NCBI RefSeq assembly: GCF_053078305.1
Contig: NZ_CP166879.1
Strand: one strand, 5' to 3'
DNA: 64,000 nucleotides
The notes beneath the pieces are model-generated. The model was not told where the DNA came from, searched no databases, and worked only from the letters and a program-made list of their open reading frames with translations. Shown here piece after piece: positions 2,901 through 64,000 of the stretch. The position numbers and the translations under genes were made by a program. Position 1 is the first letter of the stretch. The number at the start of each line of letters is the position of its first letter.

Positions 2901-3005
2901 GCAACGCAACGCAACGCAACGCAACGCAACGCAACGCAACGCAACGCAACGCAACGCAACGCAACGCAACGCAACGCAACGCAACGCAACGCAACGCAAC
3001 GCAAC
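2901..3005. repeat. perfect pentanucleotide tract (GCAAC)x21
   Basis: 21 uninterrupted GCAAC units read directly at 2901-3005 (a degenerate unit precedes at 2896-2900); lies 64 bp upstream of the mod ATG. Confidence 0.95.
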
Positions 3006-3068
3006 AATATGCTCGCCTGAACTCTCTCCGTCAAGTACCTCTACCTCCGTGCTTTCTGGAGGTACTGT

Positions 3069-19922: not shown

Positions 19923-20070
19923 TATGCCGTCAGGGTGTGCTTCCTTACATATCACGCCCTCTTCCAGACGTCGCTGGTCGTCGCCCTCTGCGTCCCTTAC
20001 TTTCAGCCCCTCTGAGCATAATCGCCCCTCCAGAGGAGCCCATCACAACGACAATGCCAGCGGGTTAATT

Positions 20071-20643: not shown

Positions 20644-21601
20644 GTCTTCATCCTCATCAGCAGCTCTTCAGTGGATAACATCCACAGTTACACCTGCATT
20701 TACGCGCAACAAAAACACCAGATGAAGATTTTATTCATTCAGCTCCGCTAAAAATTAATCTTGCTGTGGAATATCGGGAAAACAGGAAGTTACGTTAAAA
20801 GCCGAAGGAAAAACTCACAATCCCTTCTTCAATCAGCCTCTGAAAATCGGCTTTTCAGCATGTCTTCCCCCATTGTTCGTATACCCTGTTCGATGGATTA
20901 TTATTGATCCATATGATCGCTTCACGTAAACACGATTCTGGCTCCACACCATTCTGGACGCGATTGTTACCAAAAAAGACAACCATCACAAGACGTCACA
21001 GACGGTGCGTGCGCTTACTCCTGTATATCTGGCGCAACAGAATCTACCAGTGTAAACTCTCTATGCTTTTGCGCAGAAGCAGTGGGCCTGGGTTCGCTTA
21101 TGTCCTGCATCTACAAGCGAATGACTGACCAGAGACTCCCATATCTGGTCAGTCGCCCATTTTTATTTTCCCTATACACTCAGACTACAATAGCCGTAAC
21201 AAACAGCATACCCCCAGTCATAGTGGCCCCTTTATCTTCTTATGGCTTGTCTGTGGTACTGGAGATAGAGCAACTGTGGGAGTACTGTTATGGCCCCCGG
21301 TAAGAAAAACTCTTGCTTAATGTACAGCAGAACTGTTCCCAGAAAGAAGCCTGTGCATATTTTCATAGAAGGAGATCACCCATAACGGCGTTTTTCACGG
21401 TAATACACGCCAGGTAAAGAATGCTGGATTATCAATCAAAGCTCCGCACAGGAAGCGCTTATGCCGTAGAGCGCCCTCTGGAGAAAAGTGCTACTTCTTG
21501 TCGATTCAGACTAGTTCAGGAAATTATACGAAAATATTACCTGAATGAGCTAAATGTTATTTACCTTCCTTTCTGTTCATTGTAAATTTTTTCTTGCTAA
21601 C

Positions 21602-21620
21602 GCAAATCATTATCATTACG
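21602..21620. promoter_or_regulatory. Fur-box-like sequence upstream of TonB-dependent receptor
   Basis: GCAAATCATTATCATTACG contains AATCATTATC, matching half of the Fur consensus GATAATGATAATCATTATC; about 20 bp upstream of the ATG. Confidence 0.55.
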
Positions 21621-21640
21621 ATTTTAGAAAAGGGAAATTT

Positions 21641-34397: not shown

Positions 34398-35555
34398 TTA
34401 TTTAGAACCGGCGCTCCAGCGAAATCCCCAGCCAAATGCCCGGTCCATTTCGTCCTGGCCTTTGAAGTACTGGTTGATACGCTCAACTTTAATCGCACCG
34501 TTTTCGTTTACGAGTCTGGCAATGGCGCACAATGTGCGACGGTTTTCACCTTCAGTCAGGCGGGTCTCAATGGGCGGTTGATCCGGCACATAAATGGTGA
34601 CCACTCCATCAGTCTTGTCCCAACTGGGAACACCTTCATAAATAAAGGCGTAAATCAGCACTTCGCGGATATGCTTCCATTCACGTCCATTGATATGCAG
34701 CCACTCGCCGTCTGATACATCACCCGTCCGGTCATCGCCCTTGAGCTGAACATAAGGTTCATCGCGATAATCACCGAATGCATTACCGAGCGCCTGAATG
34801 ACCGACTTATACCCGTCCTGAAGCTCAACAAAGGCTCCCAGATCCAGGTCGATGCCTTTGGAGCCGAACATGCCTGCAAAGCCGGATTTGCCGCTGCCCC
34901 GGTGCCAGTTCAGGTTGATCCTGATTTCACCGAAGTTATCCCGTTTGGTCAGACTGATTGCAGGCATCTCTTTTGTCAGAGATACTTTACTCAGGCTGAT
35001 TTTTGTCTCAGCTGGCAGAGGGGGTACAACCGGAGGAGTCGGGGCTGCGGGAGCCGGTTCGTCGGCAATATTTACGCCGAAATGCTCTGCCAGCGGTTTA
35101 AGTCCACCGTTGAACCCCTGCGCAACGAAGCGGAATTTCCAGCCATTATTACGACGGTAAAATTCACCCAGAATTAAGGCTGCTTCCTGACGGCCGCTCA
35201 GTTCGACACAGCCGCTCACCAGGCCGGTAGCCCCTTGCTCCACGTCGATGGAAAGATTACGAAGACCGGACACCGTCTGCCCACCGTCACAGGTCACGGT
35301 GAACGCAATTTTCTGGACATCAGGTTTCAGCCGGTTGAGCGCGACAGTAAAGGTTGAGTACTGACCTTCACTGACCAGGCTGACAGTACCATCATCGTTA
35401 CGTGGCTGACCATAAAACACCATGTCCGCATCCCCCTGCACCTTCCCGGCGGCATACAGGCGAAACGCTGAAGCATCCACCTGGACGCCCGAGGTTATCC
35501 GGACCCGCAACTCCTGGGCTGGAACGGGGGCATTGCCCCCCGGCATCAGGTTCAT
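34398..35555 (-). CDS. terA: tellurium resistance protein TerA
   Basis: 385 aa with TerD-like domains. Confidence 0.85.
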   Translation of the reverse strand: MNLMPGGNAPVPAQELRVRITSGVQVDASAFRLYAAGKVQGDADMVFYGQPRNDDGTVSLVSEGQYSTFTVALNRLKPDVQKIAFTVTCDGGQTVSGLRNLSIDVEQGATGLVSGCVELSGRQEAALILGEFYRRNNGWKFRFVAQGFNGGLKPLAEHFGVNIADEPAPAAPTPPVVPPLPAETKISLSKVSLTKEMPAISLTKRDNFGEIRINLNWHRGSGKSGFAGMFGSKGIDLDLGAFVELQDGYKSVIQALGNAFGDYRDEPYVQLKGDDRTGDVSDGEWLHINGREWKHIREVLIYAFIYEGVPSWDKTDGVVTIYVPDQPPIETRLTEGENRRTLCAIARLVNENGAIKVERINQYFKGQDEMDRAFGWGFRWSAGSK

Positions 35556-37523: not shown

Positions 37524-38666
37524 ATGTCTGATACCCTCGAAGATATGATTTATCGCCGTACCCTCTCATGCGGTACGATTCAGGTAACCCGCGACCAGGG
37601 TGAAGTTTCGCTCGATGACCTGTTTGATATCGCTGAAAGACGTAACCCGAAACGCGCCTTTCTGTTTGTCAGCAAAGTACTCGGCAGGCACATTCCCGTG
37701 CCACCCTCAGTCATGCGGCAGGCCTACAGACAGCTTGCCAGCCAGTTCCCCTCAACGCTGACAGGGCCCATACTGTTTATCGGTATGGCAGAAACCGCCG
37801 TTGGGCTTGGGGCTGGTGTGTTTGATGAAGTGCGCCACCAGCATCGTGAATCTGTCTATCTGACCTCTACCCGTCACCCGGTTGATGGCACATTGCTTTG
37901 CGAGTTCAAGGAAGAACACAGCCACGCCACCGATCATCTGATCTATCTGCCAGACGATGAAGAGAAAAGACGTCGTGTTACAAACGCGCGAACTCTGGTT
38001 TTGATTGATGACGAAGCAACCACCGGTAATACCTTTATTAACCTGCTTTCTGCCCTGCGTAATACCGGCAAGCTTCAACATATTGAACAGGTTATCGCTG
38101 TTACGCTTACGGACTGGAGCGAAAATGCCCTGTCCAGGCGCAGCACTTTACCCGTCACTTCGGTTTCTCTTGTAAGTGGTCAGTGGGGATGGACTCCATT
38201 ACCAGATGCACCTGTCCCGGACATGCCGAAGGTCAACGTAACTTCACGTGGAAAATGGGACATCCAGGGAAAACAGTCCTGGGGTCGACTGGGGATGCTC
38301 GCACCTGCGGCCGATCTCGGTCATGAGGTATCCTTCCGCAAGGGGGAGCGTGTTCTGGTTCTCGGGACAGGGGAATTCGTCTGGGAGCCGTTCCTGCTTG
38401 CTGAACGGCTCGAAGCTGCCGGAGCACAGGCATTTTATGGTGCGACCACCCGCTCCCCTATCGCCGTTGGTTATGCCATTAAGTCCGCAATTTCCTTTAC
38501 GGATAACTACGGCCTGGGCATCCCCAATTTTGTCTATAACGTCGCCCATCAGCAATTTGACCGCATTCTTGTGTGTACTGAGACACCTGCAGAAAGTATT
38601 GACACGCGGCTTCTTAAAGCGCTGGCTGAGGTTGCACCCGTCGTGGAGATTGTTACCTATGAATAA
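37524..38666 (+). CDS. phosphoribosyltransferase-domain protein
   Basis: PRPP-binding-type motif VLIDDEATTGNT; ORF starts with GTG at 37518, ATG at 37524 has an RBS. Confidence 0.7.
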   Translation: MSDTLEDMIYRRTLSCGTIQVTRDQGEVSLDDLFDIAERRNPKRAFLFVSKVLGRHIPVPPSVMRQAYRQLASQFPSTLTGPILFIGMAETAVGLGAGVFDEVRHQHRESVYLTSTRHPVDGTLLCEFKEEHSHATDHLIYLPDDEEKRRRVTNARTLVLIDDEATTGNTFINLLSALRNTGKLQHIEQVIAVTLTDWSENALSRRSTLPVTSVSLVSGQWGWTPLPDAPVPDMPKVNVTSRGKWDIQGKQSWGRLGMLAPAADLGHEVSFRKGERVLVLGTGEFVWEPFLLAERLEAAGAQAFYGATTRSPIAVGYAIKSAISFTDNYGLGIPNFVYNVAHQQFDRILVCTETPAESIDTRLLKALAEVAPVVEIVTYE

Positions 38667-39432
38667 ACCCGTTGTTCTGAGCGACCTTGACGACACGCTC
38701 TTTCAGACCCGTCGTAAAATGGTAGACGAGCTGGCCCTGGAGCCATTCCGTACCGGTGCCGTTGATCGTACTCTGAATCCACGAAGCTTTATGACAGAAG
38801 AACAGTCCATGTTAGTGGACTGGCTCCTAGAGCAGGCTGAACTCATTCCCGTTACCGCACGGGGAACTGAAGAAATCAGCCGCGTAAGGATCCCTTTCCA
38901 CTCCTGGGCAATCACCACGCACGGGGCCGTCATTCTCACGCCTGAAGGCAAACCCGACGAGGAGTGGAAGGCCCATATGCTCGGCCAGCTAACTCCCTAC
39001 CAGGAAAAGCTGGCATCGATGCAGCGTCTGATCACTGAAATGATGGACGCAAAAGGGATCAATGCCTGGGCAAGACTGAACTTCGAATACGGTGAAACGG
39101 CGGTTTATATGGTGATGAAACACCGCGACAGCACTCGCCTTGACGAACTCAATGCCATTGCAGATGAGATAGAAACGGTATTTTCGACCGAGGGCTTCTA
39201 CATCCACCGCAACAGTAACAACGTAGCCTGGCTTCCCACCCCGGTTGAGAAAGGGCTGGCCGTCAGCTGGCTGCTTGAAAAACTTCGGGCTGAACGCGGA
39301 GTTTTCCCCGTAATTGGTCTGGGCGACAGCCTGAGCGATCATCGTTTTATGAAACTGTGCAGCTGGTTTGGCATCCCGCGTCAGAGTCAGTTTGCAGATG
39401 CCATTTCACAGCGAATTTTTGGAGAAAATTAA
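38659..39432 (+). CDS. HAD-superfamily hydrolase
   Basis: N-terminal DLDDTLF (DxDxT) motif; ATG 38659 overlaps the upstream stop. Confidence 0.7.
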   Translation: MNKPVVLSDLDDTLFQTRRKMVDELALEPFRTGAVDRTLNPRSFMTEEQSMLVDWLLEQAELIPVTARGTEEISRVRIPFHSWAITTHGAVILTPEGKPDEEWKAHMLGQLTPYQEKLASMQRLITEMMDAKGINAWARLNFEYGETAVYMVMKHRDSTRLDELNAIADEIETVFSTEGFYIHRNSNNVAWLPTPVEKGLAVSWLLEKLRAERGVFPVIGLGDSLSDHRFMKLCSWFGIPRQSQFADAISQRIFGEN

Positions 39433-39433
39433 A

Positions 39434-40513
39434 ATGCAGCCACATGAAACATTTACCGGCTCATACCAGCCCGGTGACGTGGAATTTCTGCTAAAGCCGG
39501 TTGTCATTGAAATGACGCCAGTTGATCAAAAAGAAGAGCTGATTCAGTCCGGGAAGAAACATTATTCGGACATGCTCAGCCAGGAGCCAGCGCCGACACA
39601 ATGGCATCTTGATTTGTTTCACCGGGCGCTGGATCGGGGCGCAGAGAGACTTGCAAAAGAAGTCACACAGCTCGCTATTGCTCTGGCCGAACGCTTCGGT
39701 GATGAGCCCATAGTACTGGCCAGTCTTGTCAGGGCTGGCGTACCGCTCGGCGTTATGCTACACCAGGCTCTGCGTGACATGGGAAAAACCTCATGGCATT
39801 ACGGCATCAGCATCATCCGGGATCGTGGAATTGACGGTACAGCACTTGATATCATTGAAGAGCGGCATGGTACCAGCGGCATTGTCTTTGTTGACGGATG
39901 GACAGGTAAAGGCGCAATTACCGGAGAGCTTGTACGCGCACTGAGAGATCGCCCGGGCTATCCTGAGCAGCCGCGACTGGTTGTCCTGGCCGATCCCTGT
40001 GGCTGTTCCTGGCTTGCAGCAAGTGATGATGACTGGCTCATTCCTTTTGGCATCATGGGGGCTCCGGTGTCAGGCCTGCTCTCCCGGTCAGTATGGTCCT
40101 CTGAAGGATTACATGGGTGCATGGTTTGCGAGCATCTCAGTGAATTCGAATGCAGCCGGATGCTTGTCGATACCGTCGCTCATTTCCGTAAGAAGTTAAC
40201 ACCGTCATCCCTCGCTCCTCTGAGCTGGAATACGGAGTCAACCCGGGTCTTATGGCAGACAAGTCGCGACGTTATCGCGTTCCTGGCCGATGAATTTAAA
40301 GTGGACAGCGTCAACCGTATTAAACCCGGTATTGCTGAAGCAACCCGGGCTGTATTACGTCGGGTACCGGACCATGTATTTGTGCGTTCGATTGACGACC
40401 CGGACGTTGCCTTACTTGTGGGGCTTGCTCGTGAAAAGGGAATAATTGTTACAGAAATGGGGGGAACCCTCGGCCAGTATCGGGCTGTAACCATTATCAA
40501 AAAGGTATTCTAA
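39434..40513 (+). CDS. ter-associated protein, PRTase-like (possibly StiP family)
   Basis: 359 aa from ATG 39434 (GGAG RBS); FVDGWTGKGAITG nucleotide-binding-like segment; family assignment uncertain. Confidence 0.45.
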   Translation: MQPHETFTGSYQPGDVEFLLKPVVIEMTPVDQKEELIQSGKKHYSDMLSQEPAPTQWHLDLFHRALDRGAERLAKEVTQLAIALAERFGDEPIVLASLVRAGVPLGVMLHQALRDMGKTSWHYGISIIRDRGIDGTALDIIEERHGTSGIVFVDGWTGKGAITGELVRALRDRPGYPEQPRLVVLADPCGCSWLAASDDDWLIPFGIMGAPVSGLLSRSVWSSEGLHGCMVCEHLSEFECSRMLVDTVAHFRKKLTPSSLAPLSWNTESTRVLWQTSRDVIAFLADEFKVDSVNRIKPGIAEATRAVLRRVPDHVFVRSIDDPDVALLVGLAREKGIIVTEMGGTLGQYRAVTIIKKVF

Positions 40514-41469
40514 TGAAAAATCGTCTTTCTCCCTGGAATCTTGGTGCCACTCTATACATGCCTGCAACACGGGAAGATATTGCTGATGCCGTTCTGCACG
40601 AGAAAATCCCGGGTTTGCGCTCTCTGGTGATTTGCCTGGAGGATGCTGTCAGTGAAGCAGACATCCCCGTCGCCCTCAAAAATCTAGAGCACCTGCTGCA
40701 CGAACTCAGTAACAGCATGCGTAGCCTGGGTAAAAATAACTGGCCCCTGTTGTTCATTCGCCCCCGGCATGCCGAAATGGGCAAATGGTTAAAAGAACAT
40801 TATGATCTTTCCGCTGTCGACGGGTTTGTGTTACCGAAATTTACCCTAAGTTCGTTAGCTGAATGGTGGGATATCATGGGCGGAACTCACCTGAGCATGA
40901 TGCCAACGCTGGAAACAGAAAACGTCTTTGATGTGATTCAGATGCGCGAGCTGGCCACCCGGCTGTTGGAACATCCCTGCCACAAGCGCATTATTGCGCT
41001 TCGAATCGGCGGCAACGATCTTATGAACGTCGTGTCGCTTCGCCGTCCCCGAGCCCTGACGCTGTATGACAGTCCGATGGGCTACGTCATCAAAATGCTC
41101 GTTTCAGTCTTCAGCCCGCGTGATTTTGCCCTGACCGCGCCCGTATGTGAGCATATTGACGATCATGCCGTTATGGCCAGAGAGCTGGCTCTTGATATGG
41201 CACATGGACTTGTTGGAAAAACGGCCATTCATCCAGATCAGATAGAGGTCATTCAAAACGCGCTGATGGTCACTCAGGGTGAGTACTCTGACGCTCTGCG
41301 GATCCTGAACTCTACCCAGGCCGTGTTTAAGTCGCAGGGGGCGATGTGTGAACCTGCCACACATCGCCGCTGGGCGGCTGGCATTCTGGACAGAGCCCGG
41401 TTTTACGGGTTACATAACGAGCAAAGCGCTGATGGAATCAGATTACTTACTATAACCCAGCATCATTAA
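40513..41469 (+). CDS. HpcH/HpaI aldolase / citrate-lyase beta (CitE)-like TIM-barrel enzyme
   Basis: ICLEDAVSEAD motif as in CitE/HpcH family; start overlaps the upstream stop (TAATG). Confidence 0.7.
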   Translation: MKNRLSPWNLGATLYMPATREDIADAVLHEKIPGLRSLVICLEDAVSEADIPVALKNLEHLLHELSNSMRSLGKNNWPLLFIRPRHAEMGKWLKEHYDLSAVDGFVLPKFTLSSLAEWWDIMGGTHLSMMPTLETENVFDVIQMRELATRLLEHPCHKRIIALRIGGNDLMNVVSLRRPRALTLYDSPMGYVIKMLVSVFSPRDFALTAPVCEHIDDHAVMARELALDMAHGLVGKTAIHPDQIEVIQNALMVTQGEYSDALRILNSTQAVFKSQGAMCEPATHRRWAAGILDRARFYGLHNEQSADGIRLLTITQHH

Positions 41470-41479
41470 GGAAATCATA

Positions 41480-42487
41480 ATGGGGTTCAGGTTCAGAGGT
41501 ACTTCCGTTTCTTTCTGTAGCCGGGGGGCCTATGCCAATCTGGGGTTACCCGGTACCGAGCTGAGTTACCGTACCCGGTTTGAGCTGGCCGCGCCTTCCG
41601 GAGGTGGAAACAGGACAGCAACCGTCCCGGATCTCAGACAGTCGCTTGAGCAGGAAGCAGTTGAACTCATGTCAGCGGTGACCGCAATTCGTAACATTCA
41701 CGAGTTGACGCTGGATCCAAAAACAGGCATCAATTGGGCAGAGCTGGAAGCAGTATACCTGCATAGCAGAACATCGCTTTTTCAGGTTCCGGCACCAGTG
41801 CGTCCTGAAAAACCAGAATACCATGCATTGTCGGAAAATCCTGCAGGGAACAAAGGCATTGTTTTTCTGGGTAAATGGTTTGAATCGGAATCAGCTAAAG
41901 CTGAGCGTCAAGCAGGGAATCTTCGCCGATGGCGGCAAGAACTGATTGATGTGAAGCGTGAGAATCCCCTTCGACAGCACCGGTACCAGCAACGGCAGAC
42001 GACCAGGGCCGAACAGTATTCAAACTGGAAGTGTGATGCTGAAGAACATGAAAAAAGGCTCGCCACGACTCAGGCAGATGCCCGGCAGTTGTTCCGGGCA
42101 GACGCAGCGTTTTTCGAATCATACCTTGCGGGTGTGCTTTCAGAAACTGAATGGCCGCGTGAAACGCTTGTTGCATTTGAAGTAAAGCCGGAGATATCAA
42201 CAGTCCTGCCGGATGTTGGTTTAGCTGAGATTGAAGATTTCCCTGATAAGATTTACGGCGTCAATGCCCGGGGCATGGAGCTGACGCAAAAAGCCATACG
42301 CGAAAACTATGCCCGCCACAGCCATGGCTGCTTGTTCCGACTGGTCGGTATCGTGTTACATACGCTACCTTTCGACAAGGTGATCGCATCAGGATTTACA
42401 CAACGAGTAAGCGGAACGACTATCTGGAGGATGTTTATATCCTGTCCTGCAAATGCACTCGCAGCCAGAAGGCATAGAACATATTGA
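41480..42487 (+). CDS. hypothetical protein (DUF4236-like N-terminus)
   Basis: N-terminal MGFRFRGTSVSF resembles the DUF4236 signature; AAGGA RBS. Confidence 0.45.
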   Translation: MGFRFRGTSVSFCSRGAYANLGLPGTELSYRTRFELAAPSGGGNRTATVPDLRQSLEQEAVELMSAVTAIRNIHELTLDPKTGINWAELEAVYLHSRTSLFQVPAPVRPEKPEYHALSENPAGNKGIVFLGKWFESESAKAERQAGNLRRWRQELIDVKRENPLRQHRYQQRQTTRAEQYSNWKCDAEEHEKRLATTQADARQLFRADAAFFESYLAGVLSETEWPRETLVAFEVKPEISTVLPDVGLAEIEDFPDKIYGVNARGMELTQKAIRENYARHSHGCLFRLVGIVLHTLPFDKVIASGFTQRVSGTTIWRMFISCPANALAARRHRTY

Positions 42488-42592
42488 TCCGGTTGAAGCG
42501 TTAGGCTATCACCCTGTTATTCGAAAGATGAGAAACACATTCATTTTTCAGCCTATTGAACCACTAACCCTTTAAGCAAACTAAATATTACG

Positions 42593-43060
42593 ATGCAATT
42601 AAATACCAGACAGGCCAGAATTTTTAAGCTTGCCAACTTACTGGGCTCCGGCAAGCCTGTTTCCGCTACCGACATTATAACCTATCTGGACTGCTCAGAG
42701 CCGACATTAACACGGGCCCTCAAAGAGCTACGAAAGTCATATTCTGCAGAAATCAAATACAGTAAGGCAGGTCATTCCTATCATCTCGTTAATCCGGGTC
42801 AACTGGATAAAAAGACACTTCGCCGGATGAATGAGGCGCTTGCACAGAATGCTGATCTGAAAACCGGTGAGTCTACAGGAAAGGTCGTACTCGATAAGGA
42901 TAAAAAAACAGCCGTATCATTATCGCTACGCATGCGAATTTTAAGAAAAATTGACCGTCTGGCTGCACTGAGTGGATCGACCCGAAGTGAAGCTGTTGAA
43001 AAACTGGCACTGCATTCCGTTGACGAACTGATAAAAGAATACAGCGCTAAAAAATCCTGA
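42593..43060 (+). CDS. terW: ter operon regulator TerW-like protein
   Basis: 155 aa, size and genomic context fit TerW as I recall it. Confidence 0.55.
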   Translation: MQLNTRQARIFKLANLLGSGKPVSATDIITYLDCSEPTLTRALKELRKSYSAEIKYSKAGHSYHLVNPGQLDKKTLRRMNEALAQNADLKTGESTGKVVLDKDKKTAVSLSLRMRILRKIDRLAALSGSTRSEAVEKLALHSVDELIKEYSAKKS

Positions 43061-55242: not shown

Positions 55243-56748
55243 CTATTTTATACCTCGATTAGCAATACTTCCTGCACTCGAAGCTGCACCTTTCGCTTCC
55301 GAAATACCATTCGGTAATCCTCGACTGATTCCATCGCCAATATGAACACCAGCCCAGGACAACGCTCCCAGCCACACTGCCGGCAAGACGAGAAACATCG
55401 TCCCCATCACCAGATTCATTATCAGATCATCCGATGTGTTCTGGAATCCCATCATATTGAACCGGGTATGTGTATCCGAACTGTACAGCGCCGTCAGCAT
55501 CCAGCTGTCAAGCCACCGTGCAAGCTCCCACCAGAACGTCAGAAAGTGTACCGCAAACACCACAAACGTCAGTGTGATTAACGTCGACAGTTCATATGCC
55601 GCAAACGCCAGAATCAGCGGTATCATGATGTAAATCGCCATCAGTATTATCGACTGTACCATCGGCAGTGCCTGCCGCATTGCATCCAGTGCCGGAAACG
55701 CACCCAGTGCTGCTACCGCACTGCCCGCCGTTCCCGCAATCCGGGCCACCGCATTCATGGTCGTCATATCTGCATTGCCACCATAGCCACGATACACCTC
55801 TCCCCCCTGAGAGAGCGTCAGGTTTGCCGGACTCACCAGACGCTTGATCACCTCCTCCTTATAATCCACCTGACTACTGCCAATCATCTTCATTGCAGCT
55901 GACAGACGTAACCAGTAATGGTCACTGACCTCCTCCATGACCCGTTTTTTCAGCCCCACACTACTGTCACTCCACCACTCCCGGCATGTCGGATAGCCTC
56001 CCCGCCCCGTATCCGGTCGTCCGCTGTCACGTGCTGTATTCCACGGGAACGCAGCCCGCGGCATCTTTGACTGCAGCGTCCCGTAATCCCCCTGCATGAA
56101 TGTGGCGCTCCCTATCCAGGAGATATCATCAAGCACTTTTTTATCTTTACTCTGCCCCTGATCACGCTGTTTCCACATATACAGTGCCAGTGAATAACAG
56201 TCGTTCATAAAGTCCTGCAGCTCATCAGCAAGTGCCCTGTTTTCTATAAACGTTCGCTGGATCTCAAAACGCAACTGGCGCAAATCAGGCCGGCACGGAA
56301 TCGAAGCCACTGCCGCCTGGGTGACACCTTTCGACAATTTATGAACCACCACCCACCATACCGGGGCTGCAGCAGTCTGATCCCCTATACTGCTGATCAC
56401 CCCACTGTACCCCGTCTCTCCGGGCTCTTCAGGTGTCCATACCCCACAGGTCTGTGCCCTGGATTTATCGAATGACAGCGTATCCAGCGTCACCTGTACC
56501 AGAGGAACACAGCAGGATATCATCACAAAAAAAGCACCATAGAGAACATGCTCAATACGCGGCAGGGAAAGCATCCCTTTGTTTCCCTCATCCGCACCTT
56601 CTTCCCTGACTTTCAGCCAGATCCCGATGATCCTGAATGCCAGTGGCAGGGCAAACAGTCCTGTGCTGATCAACACATTCCACAGACCGTTATTCACCAC
56701 CCAGCCCAGCAGAGTCAGAAAATATTCCAGATAGTTATTTGTGGTCAT
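55243..56748 (-). CDS. conjugative-transfer membrane protein, TraG N-terminal-domain-like (ICE-type T4SS)
   Basis: 501 aa with transmembrane segments at both ends and a large central domain; last gene of a co-directional T4SS array. Confidence 0.55.
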   Translation of the reverse strand: MTTNNYLEYFLTLLGWVVNNGLWNVLISTGLFALPLAFRIIGIWLKVREEGADEGNKGMLSLPRIEHVLYGAFFVMISCCVPLVQVTLDTLSFDKSRAQTCGVWTPEEPGETGYSGVISSIGDQTAAAPVWWVVVHKLSKGVTQAAVASIPCRPDLRQLRFEIQRTFIENRALADELQDFMNDCYSLALYMWKQRDQGQSKDKKVLDDISWIGSATFMQGDYGTLQSKMPRAAFPWNTARDSGRPDTGRGGYPTCREWWSDSSVGLKKRVMEEVSDHYWLRLSAAMKMIGSSQVDYKEEVIKRLVSPANLTLSQGGEVYRGYGGNADMTTMNAVARIAGTAGSAVAALGAFPALDAMRQALPMVQSIILMAIYIMIPLILAFAAYELSTLITLTFVVFAVHFLTFWWELARWLDSWMLTALYSSDTHTRFNMMGFQNTSDDLIMNLVMGTMFLVLPAVWLGALSWAGVHIGDGISRGLPNGISEAKGAASSAGSIANRGIK

Positions 56749-56754
56749 GATTGC

Positions 56755-57096
56755 TCAACGCCCCGGCTCAGCAAAAATGGCGTATTCACACAGCAGGATA
56801 AACAGAACACTGACTGTGGCCATACGCAGAAAAGAAGCCCGGTATTCTGCCCTGAACCCCGGCGCATGCCAGATCCTCCACCCCAGCCATCCGATCGCAC
56901 TGTAAAGACACAGACGCCATCCCAGCCAGCCATAACGTGTCTCATACATCCACTCCCGCAGGGCCGCAAATCCTTCTGCGTGACGTATACCGGTATCGGC
57001 CAGCCAGAGGGAAAACACGGTAATCCCTGTCAGCAACAGCGTATACAGGGCGAATACCTTCATCCTCTTTTTCACCCGGCCATAAATTCTGCTCAT
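56755..57096 (-). CDS. ICE membrane protein
   Basis: ORF 56755..57147; ATG at 57096 has an AAGGAG RBS just after the upstream stop; hydrophobic. Confidence 0.45.
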   Translation of the reverse strand: MSRIYGRVKKRMKVFALYTLLLTGITVFSLWLADTGIRHAEGFAALREWMYETRYGWLGWRLCLYSAIGWLGWRIWHAPGFRAEYRASFLRMATVSVLFILLCEYAIFAEPGR

Positions 57097-57100
57097 CCTC

Positions 57101-58525
57101 TCACTCCTTATCCGGGGCATCGAGAGAATGGATACGGCTGTCAGCATTGTCAGCCTGCTGGATCATCGGGTTATTCCCCACACGCTCGTTATCCCGTTCA
57201 ATGATGGTCAGAACACTGTTACGCGCCAGATCCCGCTTCAGCTCCATCTCGTTTTTCAGCGCCATAATTTCCCGATCCAGCGCCTCAATACGGCGTTCCC
57301 CCTCTTCCAGTGCAGCAGGCTGAGCTGCAGCATACGGCTCGGCCATCCCCGTGAGCAGCATCCTGCGCATCAGCAGCGCCGTTTCAACGGTATCCGCCAT
57401 GGCCAGTTCTCCCGCCAGACGCGACGTCAGGGCACCATTGTCCGGATCACGCTGCAGGGCACGGATCACTCCCGCTGTCACAGACAGACTCCCGGCTTTC
57501 AGTTTTGCCAGATTCCCGGCTGTCGGCTTGTCACGACCATTGACCATACCTGCCAGCAGTTCCGTGTTAACCCGCGTCGCTTCTTCAAGCATCGGCGCAA
57601 ACCCCGTGCCGGCAATACTGGTCCCCGGCTGCTGATCAGCATCCCCGCTGGTACATGCCTTTGCATCACCACAGGTCCGCATGGATTTATCCCCCAGAAC
57701 CTTCACCACCGCCCGGGCAGCTTCCTCTGCATTACGGTATTTCATGCAGGCACTCCCGTTACAGTTCCCGGGACTGACACTGGATGTACTGGTCGAAGGC
57801 AGACTGTTCATCATATTGAAACCGGCAGCTGTCAGATCATGTGTCGGCCGGATAGCAGACTGTCCCGCTCCACCACGCTGCTGCCCTCCGATCCAGCGTT
57901 GCCCCTCCTCCCCGGTAACCTGACGACCTGCTTCATCCCCTTTGATCGCATCACCGTCCCCCGTATTCACAATTTTTTTGTACTCCTCGAGCATGGCCGC
58001 CTGCGTCCACTTATTGCTGTCCGTGAACTCCATCATGCGTTTCGCCATGTTCTGACAATTGAGCTGCGCTTTGTCGAATGCCACATTCGCCTGCAGTACA
58101 CCGTTGGTCAGCATGTCATACAGCCCCGGATTAGCCCGCTGTATCACCATTGCCGGCAGACTCGCCACGGCTCCGCTCGCCCCCTGAATCACATCCCCCA
58201 TCAGGTTTTTGAAACCATCAGTGATCCCGTTCAGCTGGTTACCCACTGTTGTTTTCAGGTCAAAATTGCCACACATCAGATCACTGCTCCACCCGAGATC
58301 CACCCCAAGTTTCTGCATATTGCTGCGCGTTGCCGGCTGCGATATCACCGAGCCCCCTCCCAGGGTATAAAACAGTTTGTCTGATACTGCGCCGTCCACG
58401 GATTTACCGTAGCCAAACGCACTGTCATTCACTTTCGGCAGGGACAAAAAGTTTCCGTCAGCCTGTACCGTACCCGCACAAAGCACCACAGCCAGAACAG
58501 GTATCGTCATTTTCTGTTTCATCAC
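57101..58525 (-). CDS. ICE conjugal-transfer periplasmic protein (TraH-like)
   Basis: 474 aa; signal peptide; Gly/Asn-rich; C-terminal coiled coil; position relative to TraU- and TraG-like genes. Confidence 0.5.
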   Translation of the reverse strand: MMKQKMTIPVLAVVLCAGTVQADGNFLSLPKVNDSAFGYGKSVDGAVSDKLFYTLGGGSVISQPATRSNMQKLGVDLGWSSDLMCGNFDLKTTVGNQLNGITDGFKNLMGDVIQGASGAVASLPAMVIQRANPGLYDMLTNGVLQANVAFDKAQLNCQNMAKRMMEFTDSNKWTQAAMLEEYKKIVNTGDGDAIKGDEAGRQVTGEEGQRWIGGQQRGGAGQSAIRPTHDLTAAGFNMMNSLPSTSTSSVSPGNCNGSACMKYRNAEEAARAVVKVLGDKSMRTCGDAKACTSGDADQQPGTSIAGTGFAPMLEEATRVNTELLAGMVNGRDKPTAGNLAKLKAGSLSVTAGVIRALQRDPDNGALTSRLAGELAMADTVETALLMRRMLLTGMAEPYAAAQPAALEEGERRIEALDREIMALKNEMELKRDLARNSVLTIIERDNERVGNNPMIQQADNADSRIHSLDAPDKE

Positions 58526-58535
58526 TTCCCCTTAC

Positions 58536-59510
58536 TTAAAAATTCGTACTGCCCAGGAATGTCTGTCCCCGTTTCTTGCAGCAACTGTAGGGCTGCCACA
58601 GGGCAAAGGCAGCATTACCTGTTTCAGCCGCTTCATGCTCTCCGTCAGGGAAGACTGCGCAGGACGTGGAGACTGAAGGCGTCAGTCTCTGCCATTTATG
58701 GTTCCGGGTACCCGTATTTTCCTCCACCGGATCCGGTGGCCAGTAACCGTCCTTCTTCCCTGCTTTCACCGCCTGATAGACATGTGGCTCACCGGTGCGG
58801 GTGATAATGTCAGCCACCCGCTGGGCCACCACCGCAGCAGCTTTATCATCATCTGTCTGGGTCACGAACCCGGAGCGGGGATACACATTGCCCCACATAT
58901 TCTCTTCTTCCTGGCTGCCTATTTCGCGTTTACCGGGGATCAGGGCCTCCGGGTACAGTGACTCCGGTAGTCCTGTACGCCAGGCAATACTGTCAAGCGT
59001 ACTGAGAAAATAAGGAACAAAAGGTGTCACCGGTGACTCACAGGAATATCCCGGCACCATCCCTCCGATAAGCGTGGTGGCCGGGTGCCCTGTTGCATCG
59101 GCATATTTAAAACGGATTGACGAACGACGTTCCCCCTGTACCTTCATGTCTGCGGGGTTCCCTCCTCCTGCTGACAGACCGGCAATACCTTTGCTTATGG
59201 CATTCTCCGGACCACCGGCTGTACTGCTGACCGCCGACATTTCACGCCAGGGATTTCCGCCAGGTGCGGTATAGGTGGAAACAACCACTTCCGGGATATA
59301 ATGGGAAACTTTCACTGATGTTCTGACCTTGCAACTGAATTTGGTGCAGAACAGCCAGTAGCAAATCCCGCTGACCCGCCAGCTGATACAGCTCTGTGAG
59401 GCTGCACTGGCCACTATCTGCGCGGTGTTCAGCGATGCCTCTGCCACCGGCAATACCGCCATACTTAACAGCAGAACACCGGCGCGATGACGTGATGTGC
59501 AGGAAATCAT
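58536..59510 (-). CDS. TraU-like conjugal-transfer protein
   Basis: 324 aa; signal peptide and Cys/Trp-rich segment (SGICYWLFC) reminiscent of TraU family; start overlaps upstream stop. Confidence 0.55.
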   Translation of the reverse strand: MISCTSRHRAGVLLLSMAVLPVAEASLNTAQIVASAASQSCISWRVSGICYWLFCTKFSCKVRTSVKVSHYIPEVVVSTYTAPGGNPWREMSAVSSTAGGPENAISKGIAGLSAGGGNPADMKVQGERRSSIRFKYADATGHPATTLIGGMVPGYSCESPVTPFVPYFLSTLDSIAWRTGLPESLYPEALIPGKREIGSQEEENMWGNVYPRSGFVTQTDDDKAAAVVAQRVADIITRTGEPHVYQAVKAGKKDGYWPPDPVEENTGTRNHKWQRLTPSVSTSCAVFPDGEHEAAETGNAAFALWQPYSCCKKRGQTFLGSTNF

Positions 59511-59902
59511 GGCTGCCCTCCCCCTGTACGCAGTTGTTCTGCCAGCACCACGTCTGTGGTTCCGTAGACCACTTCACTGTCATCAAAAACCACAGCCGGA
59601 TATTTTTTCAGTCCAAGGGACCAGGCATGTGCTAATGCACGGTAGTGTTCAGCAAGCCCTGCCTGAAACGACTGCCATTCAGGCGACTGCATCCGTTCCA
59701 TGACACGGGCAGATGCTTCTGCAGGCTCTGCGGGAAGTACCCCGAAAAATGTATCCTGCGTCTGCTCAGGAGCATCAAGCAGGACAACACGAACACCTGC
59801 TGGCGGGTTCATGGGGCGCTGGTGCGAATCGGTATAAATTGTTGTACCGGCAGATGCAGCCACCGGTAGTATCAGGAAGGAATACAGTAACAGTCGGTAC
59901 AT
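59507..59902 (-). CDS. ICE periplasmic protein (small secreted)
   Basis: 131 aa with signal peptide MYRLLLYSFLILPVAASA; within the T4SS array. Confidence 0.45.
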   Translation of the reverse strand: MYRLLLYSFLILPVAASAGTTIYTDSHQRPMNPPAGVRVVLLDAPEQTQDTFFGVLPAEPAEASARVMERMQSPEWQSFQAGLAEHYRALAHAWSLGLKKYPAVVFDDSEVVYGTTDVVLAEQLRTGGGQP

Positions 59903-60037
59903 GATGCGACTCCGTCAGACAACTGGTATCTGACAGCGTGCGCAAAGGCAAAGGGACAATCAGCAATAAATTCAAAACCGGATGATAAAAATTAAGCCTC
60001 TTCCTCTGAATAACGCACACTCTGCATCTGAATCAAA

Positions 60038-60757
60038 TTAATCCGGTTGCATCACAGGAAGCCACTGATTCGGGGTAATACCATAATAACGCCTGAACAC
60101 AGAAATAAAATAAGAAGCACTGGCATAGCCACACAACTCTGCCACCCGGGAAATACGGTTTTCTCCCGCAGACAAAAGCTGAACGGCATACTGCATTCTC
60201 TCTTTCAGAAGAAGCTCACTGAAGGTCGTCAGCTCTTCCTGAAGCTTTTTCTTCAGTAAACTCTCACTTATATATAACAGACTGGCCACTTCACCCAGCA
60301 TCCATGGACGGGACAAATCAGCACTGATAATATTCTTCACCCGGACAGTGCAGCTCCGGATACACCCCGTGAGCAGGGCATGGAAATCCGGATGTTCCTC
60401 AAACAGCGCCAGACTGGAAAAAGCCACCGCATCCCTGAAGTACACCGGCGATGGTTCATCTGTAATAAGTTGTCTGATCAGACATTCCGCCAGCACGGAC
60501 ATCTGTGGCCGGATCTGTAAAAGCAAAGACGACGGGCTGACTGCCATACCGGATAATGGCGTGCAGAACCGCAGATACCGCCTCACCACCTCCTCACTGA
60601 GGTCAGCGATAAGGAAACGTCCGGTATGAGCCTGAAAAGCAGGGCGCAGATGCCCGGCAATCAGAAGCATTGTGCCGGCAGGTATGACAGAGTTCCTGTG
60701 CTCCAGACAAAGCATTGTCTGTTTGAGAGCCATAATGACAGCGCAGGTACAGGGCAT
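60038..60757 (-). CDS. AraC-family transcriptional regulator
   Basis: C-terminal AraC-type HTH (GENRISRVAELCGYASASYFISVFRRYYGITPNQW). Confidence 0.8.
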   Translation of the reverse strand: MPCTCAVIMALKQTMLCLEHRNSVIPAGTMLLIAGHLRPAFQAHTGRFLIADLSEEVVRRYLRFCTPLSGMAVSPSSLLLQIRPQMSVLAECLIRQLITDEPSPVYFRDAVAFSSLALFEEHPDFHALLTGCIRSCTVRVKNIISADLSRPWMLGEVASLLYISESLLKKKLQEELTTFSELLLKERMQYAVQLLSAGENRISRVAELCGYASASYFISVFRRYYGITPNQWLPVMQPD

Positions 60758-60861
60758 CGGATATCCGGTAAATATGCTGATTTATTAAAGAGACAGACAT
60801 GCCCCGTATATAAAATTCCGTGTCACCGGGTGCTGAAAAAAACTGCACCGGCGGCGCTCTT

Positions 60862-61323
60862 TTACTCCTCCGTTACGGATATTTCAGCTCCCTTTTCAGG
60901 AGCGGTATCCTTCACATCACTGAGACCGGACTGAGTCGCTTCAGAGACCTCTGCCACCTTTCCGGCTGCCTGTGTTTTTACTTCCTCCACGGCATCCTTC
61001 ACCTCGCTGAGCCCGGACTGAGCCGCTTCAGAGACCTCTGCCATCTTTCCGGCTGCCTGTGTTTTCACTTCCTCCACGGCATCCTTCACCTCGCTGAGCC
61101 CGGACTGAGCCGCTTCAGAAACCTCTGCCACTTTTCCGGCAGCCTGCATTTTCACGTCCTCCGCGGCATCCTTCACATCACTGAGTTGAGTCTGCGCAGC
61201 TTCCTTTATATCTGCCGCCTTCTTACTTACATTCTCCTTTGTCGCATCATCACAGCCCGCAACCAGAAATGGTGCGGAAATACATAACGCCAGAATTGTT
61301 TTTTTCAGCATACAATCTCTCAT
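60862..61323 (-). CDS. lipoprotein with 29-residue tandem repeats
   Basis: signal peptide with lipobox LVAGC; about 3.4 copies of AAGK(V/M)AEVSEAAQSGLSEVKDAVEEVKTQ. Confidence 0.6.
   Translation of the reverse strand: MRDCMLKKTILALCISAPFLVAGCDDATKENVSKKAADIKEAAQTQLSDVKDAAEDVKMQAAGKVAEVSEAAQSGLSEVKDAVEEVKTQAAGKMAEVSEAAQSGLSEVKDAVEEVKTQAAGKVAEVSEATQSGLSDVKDTAPEKGAEISVTEE
60909..61200. repeat. 87-bp tandem repeat (~3.4 copies) inside the lipoprotein gene
   Basis: repeat starts read at 60909, 60996, 61083 and 61170 with few substitutions. Confidence 0.85.
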
Positions 61324-61694
61324 TATTAAGTGTTAACGCAGAACAGCTTATATTTCGTCCCCGGAAAATGGTCAAAAGACAACCAGAACATCACAGTGTC
61401 AGGGCACACTCCCGGTATATGCTTTTATAACCATAACATGCTGTTCCTGATATTACCGGAAATGTGCCCACTACATTTAACCTGTTTTCAGCACCGGGTC
61501 ATCGGCTGTGCTGTATTTTTTATTCCCGTCACAGAAACACACTATTACCGTTGATTTCATGACGAATAAAATGAATAAATTCTCCCGTGGTCTTTACCAC
61601 CATTATTATACCAATAACACCATTTACACAGATACACTCCGGGACTATCTGTTTTTGCCCCCTCCGACTCCACCGGAGGTTTTTATTTTCATAC

Positions 61695-61940
61695 TCAGGC
61701 CTTCACCACTTCACACCGGAAGTCCTCCACCCTGACGCCAATATACCGTCCCGGCTCTTTTGCGGGCGCAAACAGTTTTTCACATTCATCCTGAGTCATT
61801 TTTTCATCCTGGTAACGCAGCCACTGAACCGGCATATTGCCTGGTTTGATTATTGTCGCAGTTATTTTATATCGCTTTCCCATACTGGCTCTCATCTCAA
61901 CACCAAAATCACCGGCTGAGCCATCACTCCGGTAATGCAT
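61695..61940 (-). CDS. hypothetical protein
   Basis: 81-aa ORF with ATG start; no family recognised. Confidence 0.3.
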   Translation of the reverse strand: MHYRSDGSAGDFGVEMRASMGKRYKITATIIKPGNMPVQWLRYQDEKMTQDECEKLFAPAKEPGRYIGVRVEDFRCEVVKA

Positions 61941-62064
61941 GCGAAAAAAAGTGAGCGTCTCAGCAATGGCTCATGCGGTGATTCTGTACGGTACCCGCAC
62001 AAAATACGGACACCAACAGCGTCGCAGAATACAACGAAGGCATCAGGGCAGCACCTCTCTCCCG

Positions 62065-62259
62065 CTATTTTTCAGAGTTCTTTACCCTCCTCCTGACACG
62101 GGAGTACAACCCTGACAGCATCCGGGCCAGTACATTCGCAAGCACCCATGAAAACACAGCCACACCCACAGCTCCCGCCAGAAACAGCACAGGTTCACTG
62201 GCAATTTGATCTGACAGCGATGGATACAGTGGTCCCGGAAAATCGATATCGCTCCTCAT
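62065..62259 (-). CDS. small membrane protein of the T4SS operon
   Basis: ORF 62065..62307; ATG at 62259 with a GAGGGG RBS, 1 nt after the upstream stop; one hydrophobic helix. Confidence 0.4.
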   Translation of the reverse strand: MRSDIDFPGPLYPSLSDQIASEPVLFLAGAVGVAVFSWVLANVLARMLSGLYSRVRRRVKNSEK

Positions 62260-62260
62260 A

Positions 62261-62638
62261 TCACCCCTCTCCCAGCCACAACAGCAGATAGAACAAATCC
62301 GCCGCATCAGTCACTGATATATACCAGCGGGGATGAATATACTCCTCCTCCGACGGCCAGCTCTCATGCCCACTCACAGTAAGCAGAATATGCACATACT
62401 GACCCTGCTGACCTTCCAGCATCACCGCCACACTGCTGTTCAGACCCACCCTCTGTGGCTGGCAACGGATACACTCCACCCGCCCCAGTTGCGCCGCCAG
62501 ATGCCCGCGAAGACGTTCAAGATTATCCCGTGTGGTGCAACTTATCCCCGGCGCACCCTGTGGCGGCAGAACAAACACACTTCCGGCGGGGTGAACAGCA
62601 GACACCACTTCCGGTTCCGGATACTTCAGACACAGCAT
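62261..62638 (-). CDS. hypothetical T4SS-operon protein
   Basis: ORF 62261..62692; ATG at 62638 with a GGGAG RBS, 5 nt after the ATPase stop. Confidence 0.4.
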   Translation of the reverse strand: MLCLKYPEPEVVSAVHPAGSVFVLPPQGAPGISCTTRDNLERLRGHLAAQLGRVECIRCQPQRVGLNSSVAVMLEGQQGQYVHILLTVSGHESWPSEEEYIHPRWYISVTDAADLFYLLLWLGEG

Positions 62639-62642
62639 AGTC

Positions 62643-64000
62643 TCACTCCCTGCCAGCCAGACCACGTAGCCCGTCCAGCTTTCGTGCCACATGAAACGCT
62701 GCTTCCAGTTCGCTGCACTGGTGCACCTTCATCAGGGCGCGGCGTTCAGCCTTCTCTTCTTTCTCCGTCATCCCCAGAGCCAGATACAGACTCGGTGGCA
62801 CAACCCGGAACAACGCTTCTGTGCGCTTCGCCAGTACCACCCCCTCCGTATAACAGCCGGACAGTTTACTGGCTGACAGCAGTACCGCCTTCTGCTCCTC
62901 CGTCAGGGATTTAAAACGGGCAATATTGTTCACTTCCTCCGGCGGCATGGTCAGGCACACCCACCACTCTGCCATATTCAGCATCTTCTCCGAGACATCC
63001 GGATAATCCTTCAGGTTCTGCGTGGCCAGCCACAGCCAGGCCCCCAGCTTGCGCCACATTTTCACCACTTTGGTCATATACGGGGACAAAAGCGGGTTTA
63101 CCGTCACGATATGCGCCTCATCCACCACAAACAGAATATCCCGTCCCAGATACTGATCGCGCTCGGCAATGTTGTTAATCATATTGGTCATTGACACCAT
63201 GGTCAGTGCCATCTGGGCTTCATAACCTTCACGGGCAAGATGCCCCAGATCAATCAGGGTCACATCCGCTTCCGGCCACAGTTTTCCTTCCCGGTTAAAC
63301 AGCTCCGCTTCAAAACTGCCCGGCTGGGTGAACATCCCCAGCGACTCTGCCATCTCTGCGGCTTTAGCACGGCGAACATCATTACGCTGAGTGTCCCGCG
63401 AAATTTCCCACAACGCACTCTGCAGATCCACCGGCAGCATCTGACGCCCCTCCCGGTACGTGGTGTGCGTGGCCATCAGCAGTGCCTCACGGATCATCGC
63501 CCTGTCCGCACGTTTGAGCGCTGCTTCTTCTTTCGGATCCCCTCCGGTGATCATCATGCGGGCAGAGATTTCCATCTCCCCCAGAATGTCGCGTTTCTCT
63601 TCCTCTTCATCCCCCTCATCTTCATCAAGATCGGGCAGTGAATGCTCATCCACACTCTGCAGCGTCTCTCCCTGCTCCACCAGTTGATGAGCATCCGCAA
63701 ATGGAGGAAGACACACCCCCGTTCCCGGTTTGACACTGATTTTATTAACCGAAAGCCCGAGACTCTCAAAATAATCCGCCAGCAGACCAAACGAGTTCCC
63801 GGCCTCAGCGATAAACAGACGGGGACGATGAACTGCCATTATCTGCGACAACGAACCACACAGCGTGGCCGATTTACCGGCTCCGGTAGGCCCGAAAAGC
63901 AGCAGATGTGCATTCTGGGTCCGGTCCAGCTTGTTCAGCGGATCAAAGGTCAGCACATCCCCGCCACGGTTAAAGAAACTGAATCCGGGATGCCCCGTAC
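62643..64000 (-). CDS. conjugative-transfer ATPase, TraC/VirB4-like (partial; N-terminus beyond window end)
   Basis: Walker A LLFGPTGAGKSAT and Walker-B-like ILFVVDEAH; the reading frame stays open to the window edge. Confidence 0.8.
   Translation of the reverse strand, partial: TGHPGFSFFNRGGDVLTFDPLNKLDRTQNAHLLLFGPTGAGKSATLCGSLSQIMAVHRPRLFIAEAGNSFGLLADYFESLGLSVNKISVKPGTGVCLPPFADAHQLVEQGETLQSVDEHSLPDLDEDEGDEEEEKRDILGEMEISARMMITGGDPKEEAALKRADRAMIREALLMATHTTYREGRQMLPVDLQSALWEISRDTQRNDVRRAKAAEMAESLGMFTQPGSFEAELFNREGKLWPEADVTLIDLGHLAREGYEAQMALTMVSMTNMINNIAERDQYLGRDILFVVDEAHIVTVNPLLSPYMTKVVKMWRKLGAWLWLATQNLKDYPDVSEKMLNMAEWWVCLTMPPEEVNNIARFKSLTEEQKAVLLSASKLSGCYTEGVVLAKRTEALFRVVPPSLYLALGMTEKEEKAERRALMKVHQCSELEAAFHVARKLDGLRGLAGRE

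Follow-up and report, generated by a model that had tools for sequence, protein, structure and literature searches.

Regulator and lipoprotein genes as probable hotspot cargo in the conjugation module of a decayed integrative and conjugative element of Shiga-toxigenic Escherichia coli

How do a transcriptional regulator and a repeat-containing lipoprotein come to lie between the genes of a conjugation apparatus? The question is raised by a stretch of 64,000 nt of NZ_CP166879.1 (GCF_053078305.1), called the window in the following, of which the gene array at 55243-64000 was examined. Every gene of this array is located on the minus strand. An initial annotation had described a type IV secretion system (T4SS) array containing an AraC-family regulator, a tandem-repeat lipoprotein and about 360 bp of non-coding DNA, and all of these features are present as located, the non-coding stretch measuring 371 to 383 bp. 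It had also regarded such cargo as unusual and as an interruption of an operon, and neither view was upheld by the comparison with related elements. It is highly probable that the array is the mating-pair-formation module of a decayed integrative and conjugative element (ICE) of the PFL_4706 or ICEclc-PAPI-1-pKLC102 type, which is fixed in a mosaic island of Shiga-toxigenic Escherichia coli (STEC) and consists of two units with the AraC and lipoprotein genes as cargo of a hotspot between them. The case was correctly observed but is ordinary: a known TraC/TraU hotspot is occupied by uncharacterised accessory genes, one of them an orphan.

The element type follows from the family assignments of the backbone genes, four of which exceed the curated cut-offs of NCBIfam. 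The traC gene (62643-64000, minus strand, running past the window end) encodes a conjugative ATPase of the VirB4 type (PFL_4706 class), and no large gene follows it in the first T4SS unit; the C-terminal 437 amino acids (aa) of the ATPase, the only part inside the window, score 724.7 bits against the TIGR03744 equivalog model (cut-off 520.6). In identical genomes the product is named 'conjugative transfer ATPase' by the Prokaryotic Genome Annotation Pipeline (PGAP). The second unit starts with the TIGR03757 ICE gene (59507-59902, minus strand; 113.7 bits, cut-off 73.2), followed on the same strand by the TraU-like TIGR03756 gene (58536-59510; 429.2 bits, cut-off 188.35) and the TIGR03755 gene (57101-58525; 536.2 bits, cut-off 270.45). 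A small hypothetical backbone gene (56755-57147, minus strand) lies between the TIGR03755 gene and traG; it is annotated at the same position in every relative examined and gave no match in family searches with NCBIfam, PADLOC and PHROG. The last gene, traG (55243-56748, minus strand), encodes a protein with a TraG N-terminal domain (TraG_N; PF07916, E = 5e-78). The names TraC, TraU and TraG of the initial annotation are thereby borne out, TraU through Pfam domain PF06834 in relatives of the TIGR03756 protein. The name TraH is not, as a Pfam search at E <= 0.001 left the TIGR03755 protein without any match, TraH included. The order TIGR03757, TIGR03756, TIGR03755, TraG_N is the same as in the element of E. 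coli NC101 and in 80 other loci, and together with the TIGR03744-type TraC it agrees with a module of the PFL_4706 class.

The element is no longer complete. traG is the last transfer gene before it breaks off, and homology with most other carriers stops 95-104 bp into the query, just beyond the traG stop codon. Behind it follow a gene for type B ribosomal protein L31 (54500-54763, minus strand; named by PGAP in strain JNEC-KY171), which lies between remnants of insertion sequences (IS) and the truncated ICE end. In strain CFIAFB20190157 an IS66 element stands in place of the coupling-protein region. In JNEC-KY171 traD is kept and two IS66 insertions are found within the array (25112-27727 and 19510-21899 of locus L096), one between the AraC gene and the conserved box upstream of the TIGR03757 gene, the other separating traG from the small gene that precedes it. 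Adjoining the array, neither an integrase nor a relaxase was seen. A complete element would comprise integrase, relaxase, coupling protein and attachment sites; this set is not present here, and the element is therefore a remnant and not a working ICE. The rest of the window consists of a mosaic island; it carries genes for tellurite resistance, insertion sequences and metabolic genes of low GC content. An assignment to the LAA island was considered and rejected, since the paper describing that island lists an AraC gene (ORF28) but no conjugation genes.

The array is not a chance pattern: its 8.7 kb recur at >= 99 % identity in 17 complete E. coli genome records. The carriers are of human, bovine and food origin and several are named as STEC. 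About 130 more records contain the same backbone at 80-90 % identity. The AraC-lipoprotein pair itself was found in 18 of 5,426 complete E. coli genomes, always at this location. In one record (NZ_AP042687.1, strain OkiPb01714) the AraC-lipoprotein segment is present at two distant chromosomal sites, and the element or its remnant has thus been duplicated there.

Is cargo at this junction exceptional? For comparison, 80 loci of other Enterobacterales were retrieved via an alignment of TIGR03756 proteins, and the gap between the TraC stop and the TIGR03757 start was determined in the 40 loci with TraC inside the fetched DNA. It ranges from 75 bp in Photorhabdus to 8.9 kb with a median of 2.6 kb, next to 2.7 kb in the window. 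In 18 additional loci no TraC was met across more than 8.8 kb of upstream DNA. Among the relatives the junction is occupied more often than empty, and its contents are almost wholly lineage-specific, with 163 gene clusters of which 131 are singletons; they include the type VI secretion genes for VgrG and TssF, immunity genes and a methyltransferase. The sole recurrent gap gene is the small backbone gene following traC (22 loci). As an example of such contents, the hotspot of the Xenorhabdus loci (L020-L044) holds genes for VgrG, TssF, a TaeI-family immunity protein and a 1,469-aa protein (e.g. L023 5222-7399, L026 7418-9232, L037 2230-6639).

The same junction is already known from another host. 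Between TraU and TraC lies GI-Hotspot 3 of the Pseudomonas aeruginosa PAPI-1/PAGI-5 islands, the definition of which rests on defence systems, above all type II restriction-modification and PD-lambda-5 (PMC12629846). By its published description GI-Hotspot 3 belongs to the same ICE family type, occupies the same TraC/TraU-like junction and varies in content from element to element; however, the cargo in the window consists of a regulator, a lipoprotein and a DUF1187 protein instead of defence genes, and the host is E. coli. Owing to the wide gaps with unrelated contents and to the published hotspot, the cargo in the window is not unusual. The principle is also familiar from the SXT/R391 ICEs, where accessory genes lie at fixed intergenic sites of the transfer region (HS1-HS5) and leave transfer undisturbed, although that family is a different one and its T4SS is of another type.

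The closest relatives allow the cargo to be delimited. ICEEc2, as far as it is described in citing papers, and other E. coli ICEs of the pKLC102/PAGI-2 family such as that of NC101 have the same backbone genes in the same order at about 81 % DNA identity. These NC101-type elements differ from the window in their gap DNA, which is without AraC and lipoprotein genes, and the truncation after traG is peculiar to the element of the window. In four E. coli relatives the backbone homology ends at 59995 and resumes at 62267-62273, which leaves a variable segment of 2.27 kb (59996-62266) in the TraC/TraU hotspot. Other DNA or almost none is found there: JE86 has only 195 bp, MS1494 a hypothetical gene and a DUF1187 gene, NC101 a DUF1187 gene and 1.3 kb including a small membrane open reading frame (ORF), and A19 a DUF1187 gene and a gene on the opposite strand. 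In 0 of the 80 Enterobacterales relatives was a homologue of the AraC protein or of DUF1187 detected in the gap (tblastn, and phmmer for AraC). The idea that the AraC and lipoprotein genes are not core transfer functions is supported by these data, and synteny did not reveal the alternative that homologous ICEs all carry both genes.

The segment is composed, mosaic-like, of at least four units whose histories differ, as judged from the sequence, and its gene content is larger than initially described. The AraC and lipoprotein genes had been recognised correctly, but three genes of the interval between traC and the TIGR03757 gene had been missed, namely a DUF1187 gene, a 64-aa ORF and the small backbone gene behind traC (62261-62638, minus strand). 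The latter encodes a protein of 125 aa with no assigned function and no match in NCBIfam, PADLOC or PHROG searches; with this gene homologous DNA begins in NC101, A19, JE86 and MS1494. The 64-aa ORF (62065-62259, minus strand), which PGAP does not annotate, is predicted to encode one membrane helix. Its ATG follows 1 nt after the backbone gene's stop codon and has GGAGAGGGG just before it; the ORF matched no PADLOC or PHROG family and no DNA of the NC101 element.

The DUF1187 gene (61695-61883, minus strand; to 61940 by the longest ORF) encodes 62 aa from the PGAP start and matches PRK09750 (E = 2.6e-20) and phrog_5753 (E = 9e-17). The gene and about 215 bp upstream of it make up a separate unit, of which a further copy exists elsewhere in the island of CFIAFB20190157 (protein 92 % identical, DNA match 61695-62099). 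That second DUF1187 gene is found near a second AraC gene (36 % identical), a gene for an outer-membrane protein and a frameshifted phosphoethanolamine transferase gene; the region (38076-42794 of locus L001) is bounded by IS66 remnants and looks like hotspot cargo of another copy of the element.

Between the DUF1187 and lipoprotein genes lies a gene-free stretch (61312-61694) of 383 bp counted from the likelier lipoprotein start, or of 371 bp (61324-61694) otherwise. It is composite as well: 61521-61694 travels with the DUF1187 unit in one other strain and 61312-61520 is the upstream region of the lipoprotein gene. The larger segment 61521-62091 has 78 % identity to an IS-rich locus of another strain (L007). 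A known RNA in the stretch was ruled out by an Rfam scan at E <= 1, which returned nothing relevant. On the plus strand a terminator-like hairpin (61661-61679) with a T-run (to 61689) is oriented convergently with DUF1187, and the fold of 61521-61692 has z = -2.55 on the plus strand and z = -0.75 on the minus strand. This terminator could end an unannotated plus-strand transcript. The AraC gene, too, has a history of its own, in that a copy 73 % identical to this gene alone (59963-60841) lies on a contig without the lipoprotein gene and without an adjoining TIGR03757 gene. A defence function of the cargo was considered and dropped, since PADLOC gave matches only at E > 0.001, to a repeat-rich protein and to the backbone gene.

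The lower boundary of the cargo bears on the supposed interruption of an operon. The segment ends at the 5' edge of a promoter-like motif, TTAATTTTTATCATCCGGTTTTGAATTTATTGCTGAT (59959-59995, minus strand), called box A here, which marks the start of the second unit. Over some 95 nt in front of the TIGR03757 start codon the conservation is far better than in the coding DNA, and box A is kept there in 46 aligned loci, that is in five E. coli relatives, NC101-type elements among them, and in 41 other Enterobacterales. Its general form is TTAATTTTCA...GA(A/G)TTTATTGCTGA. With a weight matrix built only from sequences upstream of TIGR03757, a second box A was found just upstream of the RAQPRD gene, with which the block ending in traC opens, at 36-37 bits in all three E. 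coli loci extending that far, as compared to less than 12 bits for shuffled sequences of the same locus. It is also present in 8 of 11 further loci, and all extra hits in 1.3 Mb lie on the strand of the transfer genes. The 37-nt box A (TTAATTTTCA..GAATTTATTGCTGA) thus precedes both the RAQPRD-traC and the TIGR03757-traG block; besides the window, copies are located at 26886-26922 of locus L002, at 38241-38277 of the JNEC-KY171 locus (L096) and at 35137-35173 of the CFIAFB20190157 locus (L001). In some Xenorhabdus loci an additional box A stands directly after traC (e.g. L034 4240-4276). Furthermore, a weaker match of 21 bits occurs in low-GC DNA of the window itself (1303-1339, plus strand), about 55 nt upstream of a 59-aa ORF (1396-1575), and may be a trace of another element.

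Because the cargo ends at box A and a copy of the same box stands before the first T4SS operon, we infer from the sequence that the array consists of two separately promoted transcription units, with the hotspot as the space between them. The first unit would begin with the RAQPRD gene and close with traC and its small downstream neighbour; the second would begin with the TIGR03757 gene and close with traG. Either unit would have a hairpin leader and the same promoter-like box in front of it. The hotspot would have been assembled from independent pieces (small membrane ORF, DUF1187 gene, spacer, lipoprotein gene and AraC gene), and neither AraC nor the lipoprotein would be needed for transfer. 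An interruption of a single operon is hence not what the locus suggests. A comparable arrangement is known from ICEclc, an element of the same broad family, in which a 27-bp motif recurs in eight of nine transfer-competence promoters (PMC9286271). The likeness is that of a common motif before several transfer operons and concerns the arrangement, not the sequence, and box A is to be regarded as a candidate promoter.

The leader that follows box A has a common plan in the 46 loci: the box, a GCAC element and an inverted repeat running into the ribosome-binding site. In the window the TIGR03757 leader (59906-59945, minus strand) contains the element as GCGCAC and the inverted repeat CTGTCAGA..TGTCTGAC, which runs into the ribosome-binding site GGAG; it folds with -20.7 kcal/mol (z = -4.3). 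In about half of 71 leaders the fold energy is well below that of shuffled sequences, with a mean z of -1.83 and values down to -5.7. The arm sequences differ yet remain complementary in at least 10 lineages, and the inverted repeat is missing where traC abuts TIGR03757, as in Photorhabdus. RNAalifold detected no consensus pairs on a MAFFT alignment of the leaders, since the arms of different lineages do not come to lie in register there. That the hairpin sequesters the ribosome-binding site was considered and rejected, the paired probability of 0.71 being not above the control value of 0.66 with shuffled upstream sequence.

What kind of regulator is the AraC protein? The gene (60038-60757, minus strand) encodes an AraC/XylS-family protein of 239 aa with a double helix-turn-helix (HTH_18, E = 6e-14; HTH_AraC, E = 8.5e-12), belonging to the YdeO/GadW/AppY/PatE-like subgroup, which is frequent on prophages and plasmids of E. 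coli. It scores 128.9 bits against the YdeO model over residues 4-230 (cut-off 348) and 110.2 bits against the GadX model (cut-off 500). No equivalog cut-off of NCBIfam is reached, and the protein is therefore related, but not orthologous, to YdeO or GadX. Moreover, it matches phrog_1450 (E = 1e-53, residues 3-232), and relatives at 35-38 % identity are encoded in lambdoid phages and on E. coli plasmids. Full-length alignments starting with residue 1 were obtained with ECs_0287 (37.5 % identity), YdeO (33 %), GadW (32 %) and AppY (27 %), and an N-terminal MxxxCSVI motif is common to all five proteins. GadX aligns over its DNA-binding half only (44 %) and has no such motif. The PGAP start yields 210 aa and is 29 codons shorter (60671-60757), but the 239-codon frame is favoured by the alignments from residue 1 and by its being open in 10 of 11 copies examined; the annotated start is therefore probably too short.

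ECs_0287 lies in Sakai prophage Sp1 and is taken by us to be PatE, on our own equation of O-island 8 (CP-933H) with Sp1 at thrW. PatE and PsrA/PsrB of the prophages of enterohaemorrhagic E. coli (EHEC), AppY of prophage DLP12 and the chromosomal YdeO, GadW and GadX all belong to the same AraC/XylS subgroup as the regulator in the window. PatE, PsrA/B and AppY activate gadE and hdeAB and depress the LEE (locus of enterocyte effacement) in O157 (PMC10877973, PMC10057817). Like PatE, PsrB and AppY the regulator is carried by a mobile element of E. coli, whereas its carrier is an ICE remnant instead of a prophage; it has only 27-38 % identity to the studied members and stays below the YdeO and GadX equivalog cut-offs. 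By analogy, a role of the PatE, PsrA/B and AppY kind is most likely, in which the protein would activate AT-rich, silenced host promoters, above all those of the GadE/HdeAB regulon, and it may also act on the neighbouring lipoprotein gene. Acid-resistance genes as the specific targets are a tentative assignment.

The lipoprotein gene (60862-61311, minus strand) encodes 149 aa with a signal peptide and the lipobox LVAGC, including the invariant cysteine of bacterial lipoproteins. From its likely start the N-terminus reads MLKKTILALCISAPFLVAGC, followed by DD, that is aspartate at positions +2 and +3. An upstream ATG at 61323 would add four residues; PGAP uses the 61311 start in JNEC-KY171. In the Lol pathway of E. 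coli an aspartate at +2 leads to retention in the inner membrane, and by this sorting rule the lipoprotein is predicted to be inner-membrane anchored. The gene contains a tandem repeat (60903-61185) of 87 bp in 3.3 copies (91 % matches, Tandem Repeats Finder score 454). Alleles of 149 and 142 aa have 3.3 copies, an allele of 113 aa has 2.3 and alleles of 91-92 aa have 1.3. All of the repeat changes are in frame, in steps of 29 residues. The mature protein is acidic (pI 4.39) and its 29-residue units display a hydrophobic spacing of 3-4-4-3-4-3-4-4, which corresponds to eight helical turns. AlphaFold models one helix from residue 22 to 136 (mean pLDDT 80.7, mostly 80-93; single-sequence model). 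The protein would project an acidic amphipathic helix of about 115 residues from the inner membrane into the periplasm, the length of which would be set by the number of repeats.

Braun's lipoprotein Lpp and the amphipathic repeat helices of apolipoproteins and late embryogenesis abundant (LEA) proteins are comparable, the protein in the window being a small lipoprotein with a single long helix as its mature part; however, there is no significant sequence relationship to them, and the protein in the window is predicted to be anchored in the inner and not in the outer membrane and varies in repeat number. There is no Pfam match at E <= 0.001, only weak similarity to Apolipoprotein and YtxH, and the Ag473 family (NF047840) was rejected with 34.4 bits against a cut-off of 100. 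No homologue outside E. coli was found: a word-indexed search gave only near-identical E. coli variants, and in a HMMER scan of 1.84 billion representatives nothing but long, repeat-rich proteins came in addition. A promoter-like site, TTGACC-17 nt-TATAAG (61347-61375, minus strand), ends 35 nt upstream of the lipoprotein start codon. It was read by eye from the sequence and had been missed by the consensus scan, which requires T as last base of the second hexamer. The scan predicts a terminator-like hairpin with T-run (60845-60857, minus strand) directly after the stop codon. With these promoter-like and terminator-like signals of its own the lipoprotein gene looks like an independent unit.

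Beyond the interpretation as hotspot cargo, two more far-reaching proposals may be made. In LEE-negative STEC the AraC protein may rewire stress or adhesion regulons, as PatE and PsrB do in O157, and it may form with the lipoprotein a pair for envelope protection, in which the repeat count would set the length of a periplasmic helical rod. Independently of the cargo, box A and the covarying hairpin leader before both T4SS operons may represent an undescribed control element that may govern transfer genes across Enterobacterales ICEs of this family. Proposals of this reach are improbable.

It is improbable, too, that the AraC and lipoprotein genes are functionless passengers decaying in a dead element. 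Such a fate would suit an element that is truncated and riddled with insertion sequences, a pair present in so few of the 5,426 genomes, an AraC gene broken in one of 11 copies, and a lipoprotein of which frameshifted or truncated variants exist (P0007, P0129 and the 142-aa form). Nevertheless, plain decay is not favoured, because the full AraC frame is open in the 10 other copies and the repeat changes of the lipoprotein keep to frame and to 29-residue units. In addition, the cluster of AraC proteins at 90 % identity holds 607 member sequences, and plausible signals for expression accompany both genes.

Control of the transfer genes by the AraC protein is unlikely, and we give very little weight to its being a switch encoded by the element that activates the TIGR03757-traG unit, or to read-through from its gene into that unit. 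The AraC gene has the same orientation as the TIGR03757 gene, lies 135 bp upstream of it, and the consensus scan found no terminator-like site between them. However, neither the 80 Enterobacterales relatives nor any E. coli relative has an AraC homologue at this place, while all keep box A and the leader. Furthermore, an IS66 element separates the two genes in JNEC-KY171, the 73 %-identical AraC is encoded on a contig without an adjoining TIGR03757 gene, the gene is broken in strain O22:H8 154, and the element itself is truncated after traG.

Small exclusion lipoproteins such as TrbK of RP4 and Eex of pKM101 are encoded by conjugative plasmids. A corresponding role in entry or surface exclusion, with AraC as a chance neighbour, would agree with a small, predicted inner-membrane lipoprotein that varies between strains and is encoded inside a T4SS cluster, but it is hardly credible and was rejected because the slot almost never holds a lipoprotein elsewhere (one lipobox ORF of 43 aa on the opposite strand in 33 occupied gaps of relatives), homologues are absent outside E. 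coli in two large protein searches, and every self-transmissible family member would be expected to have such a function.

Returning to the reading of two units with hotspot cargo, several points weigh against it or against the functions attached to it. The promoter function of box A is putative. The lipoprotein model is built on a single sequence, and the gene has a fair sigma-70-like promoter and may not need an activator such as AraC. The identity of ECs_0287 with PatE depends on our equation of O-island 8 with Sp1, and at 27-38 % identity to studied regulators the target set of the AraC protein is not readable from homology; the roles of both proteins are what we infer from their sequences. 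Finally, with AraC disrupted in one of 11 copies (O22:H8 154) and with truncated lipoprotein variants in existence, selection on the pair may be weak.

Apart from the array, a short tandem repeat was noticed at 2729-3118 of the window, where ORFs on both strands read RCVAL or NATQR repeatedly. A 678-aa ORF just downstream of this repeat is DNA methyltransferase-like by the appearance of its sequence.

For annotation, these results mean that the T4SS array should be taken as two operons separated by a slot for cargo, and that accessory status should be the default assumption for any gene lying between traC and the TIGR03757/traU genes. For the biology of E. coli, the AraC protein adds an uncharacterised member to the YdeO/PatE-like regulators borne by mobile elements, of which the studied members alter acid resistance and virulence gene expression in EHEC. 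It is carried by few isolates, of human and bovine origin and in several cases named STEC, and this makes it a reasonable, though not urgent, candidate for a regulon study. Box A and the hairpin leader may be the more useful lead, as they offer a sequence handle on the switching of transfer genes in widespread elements.

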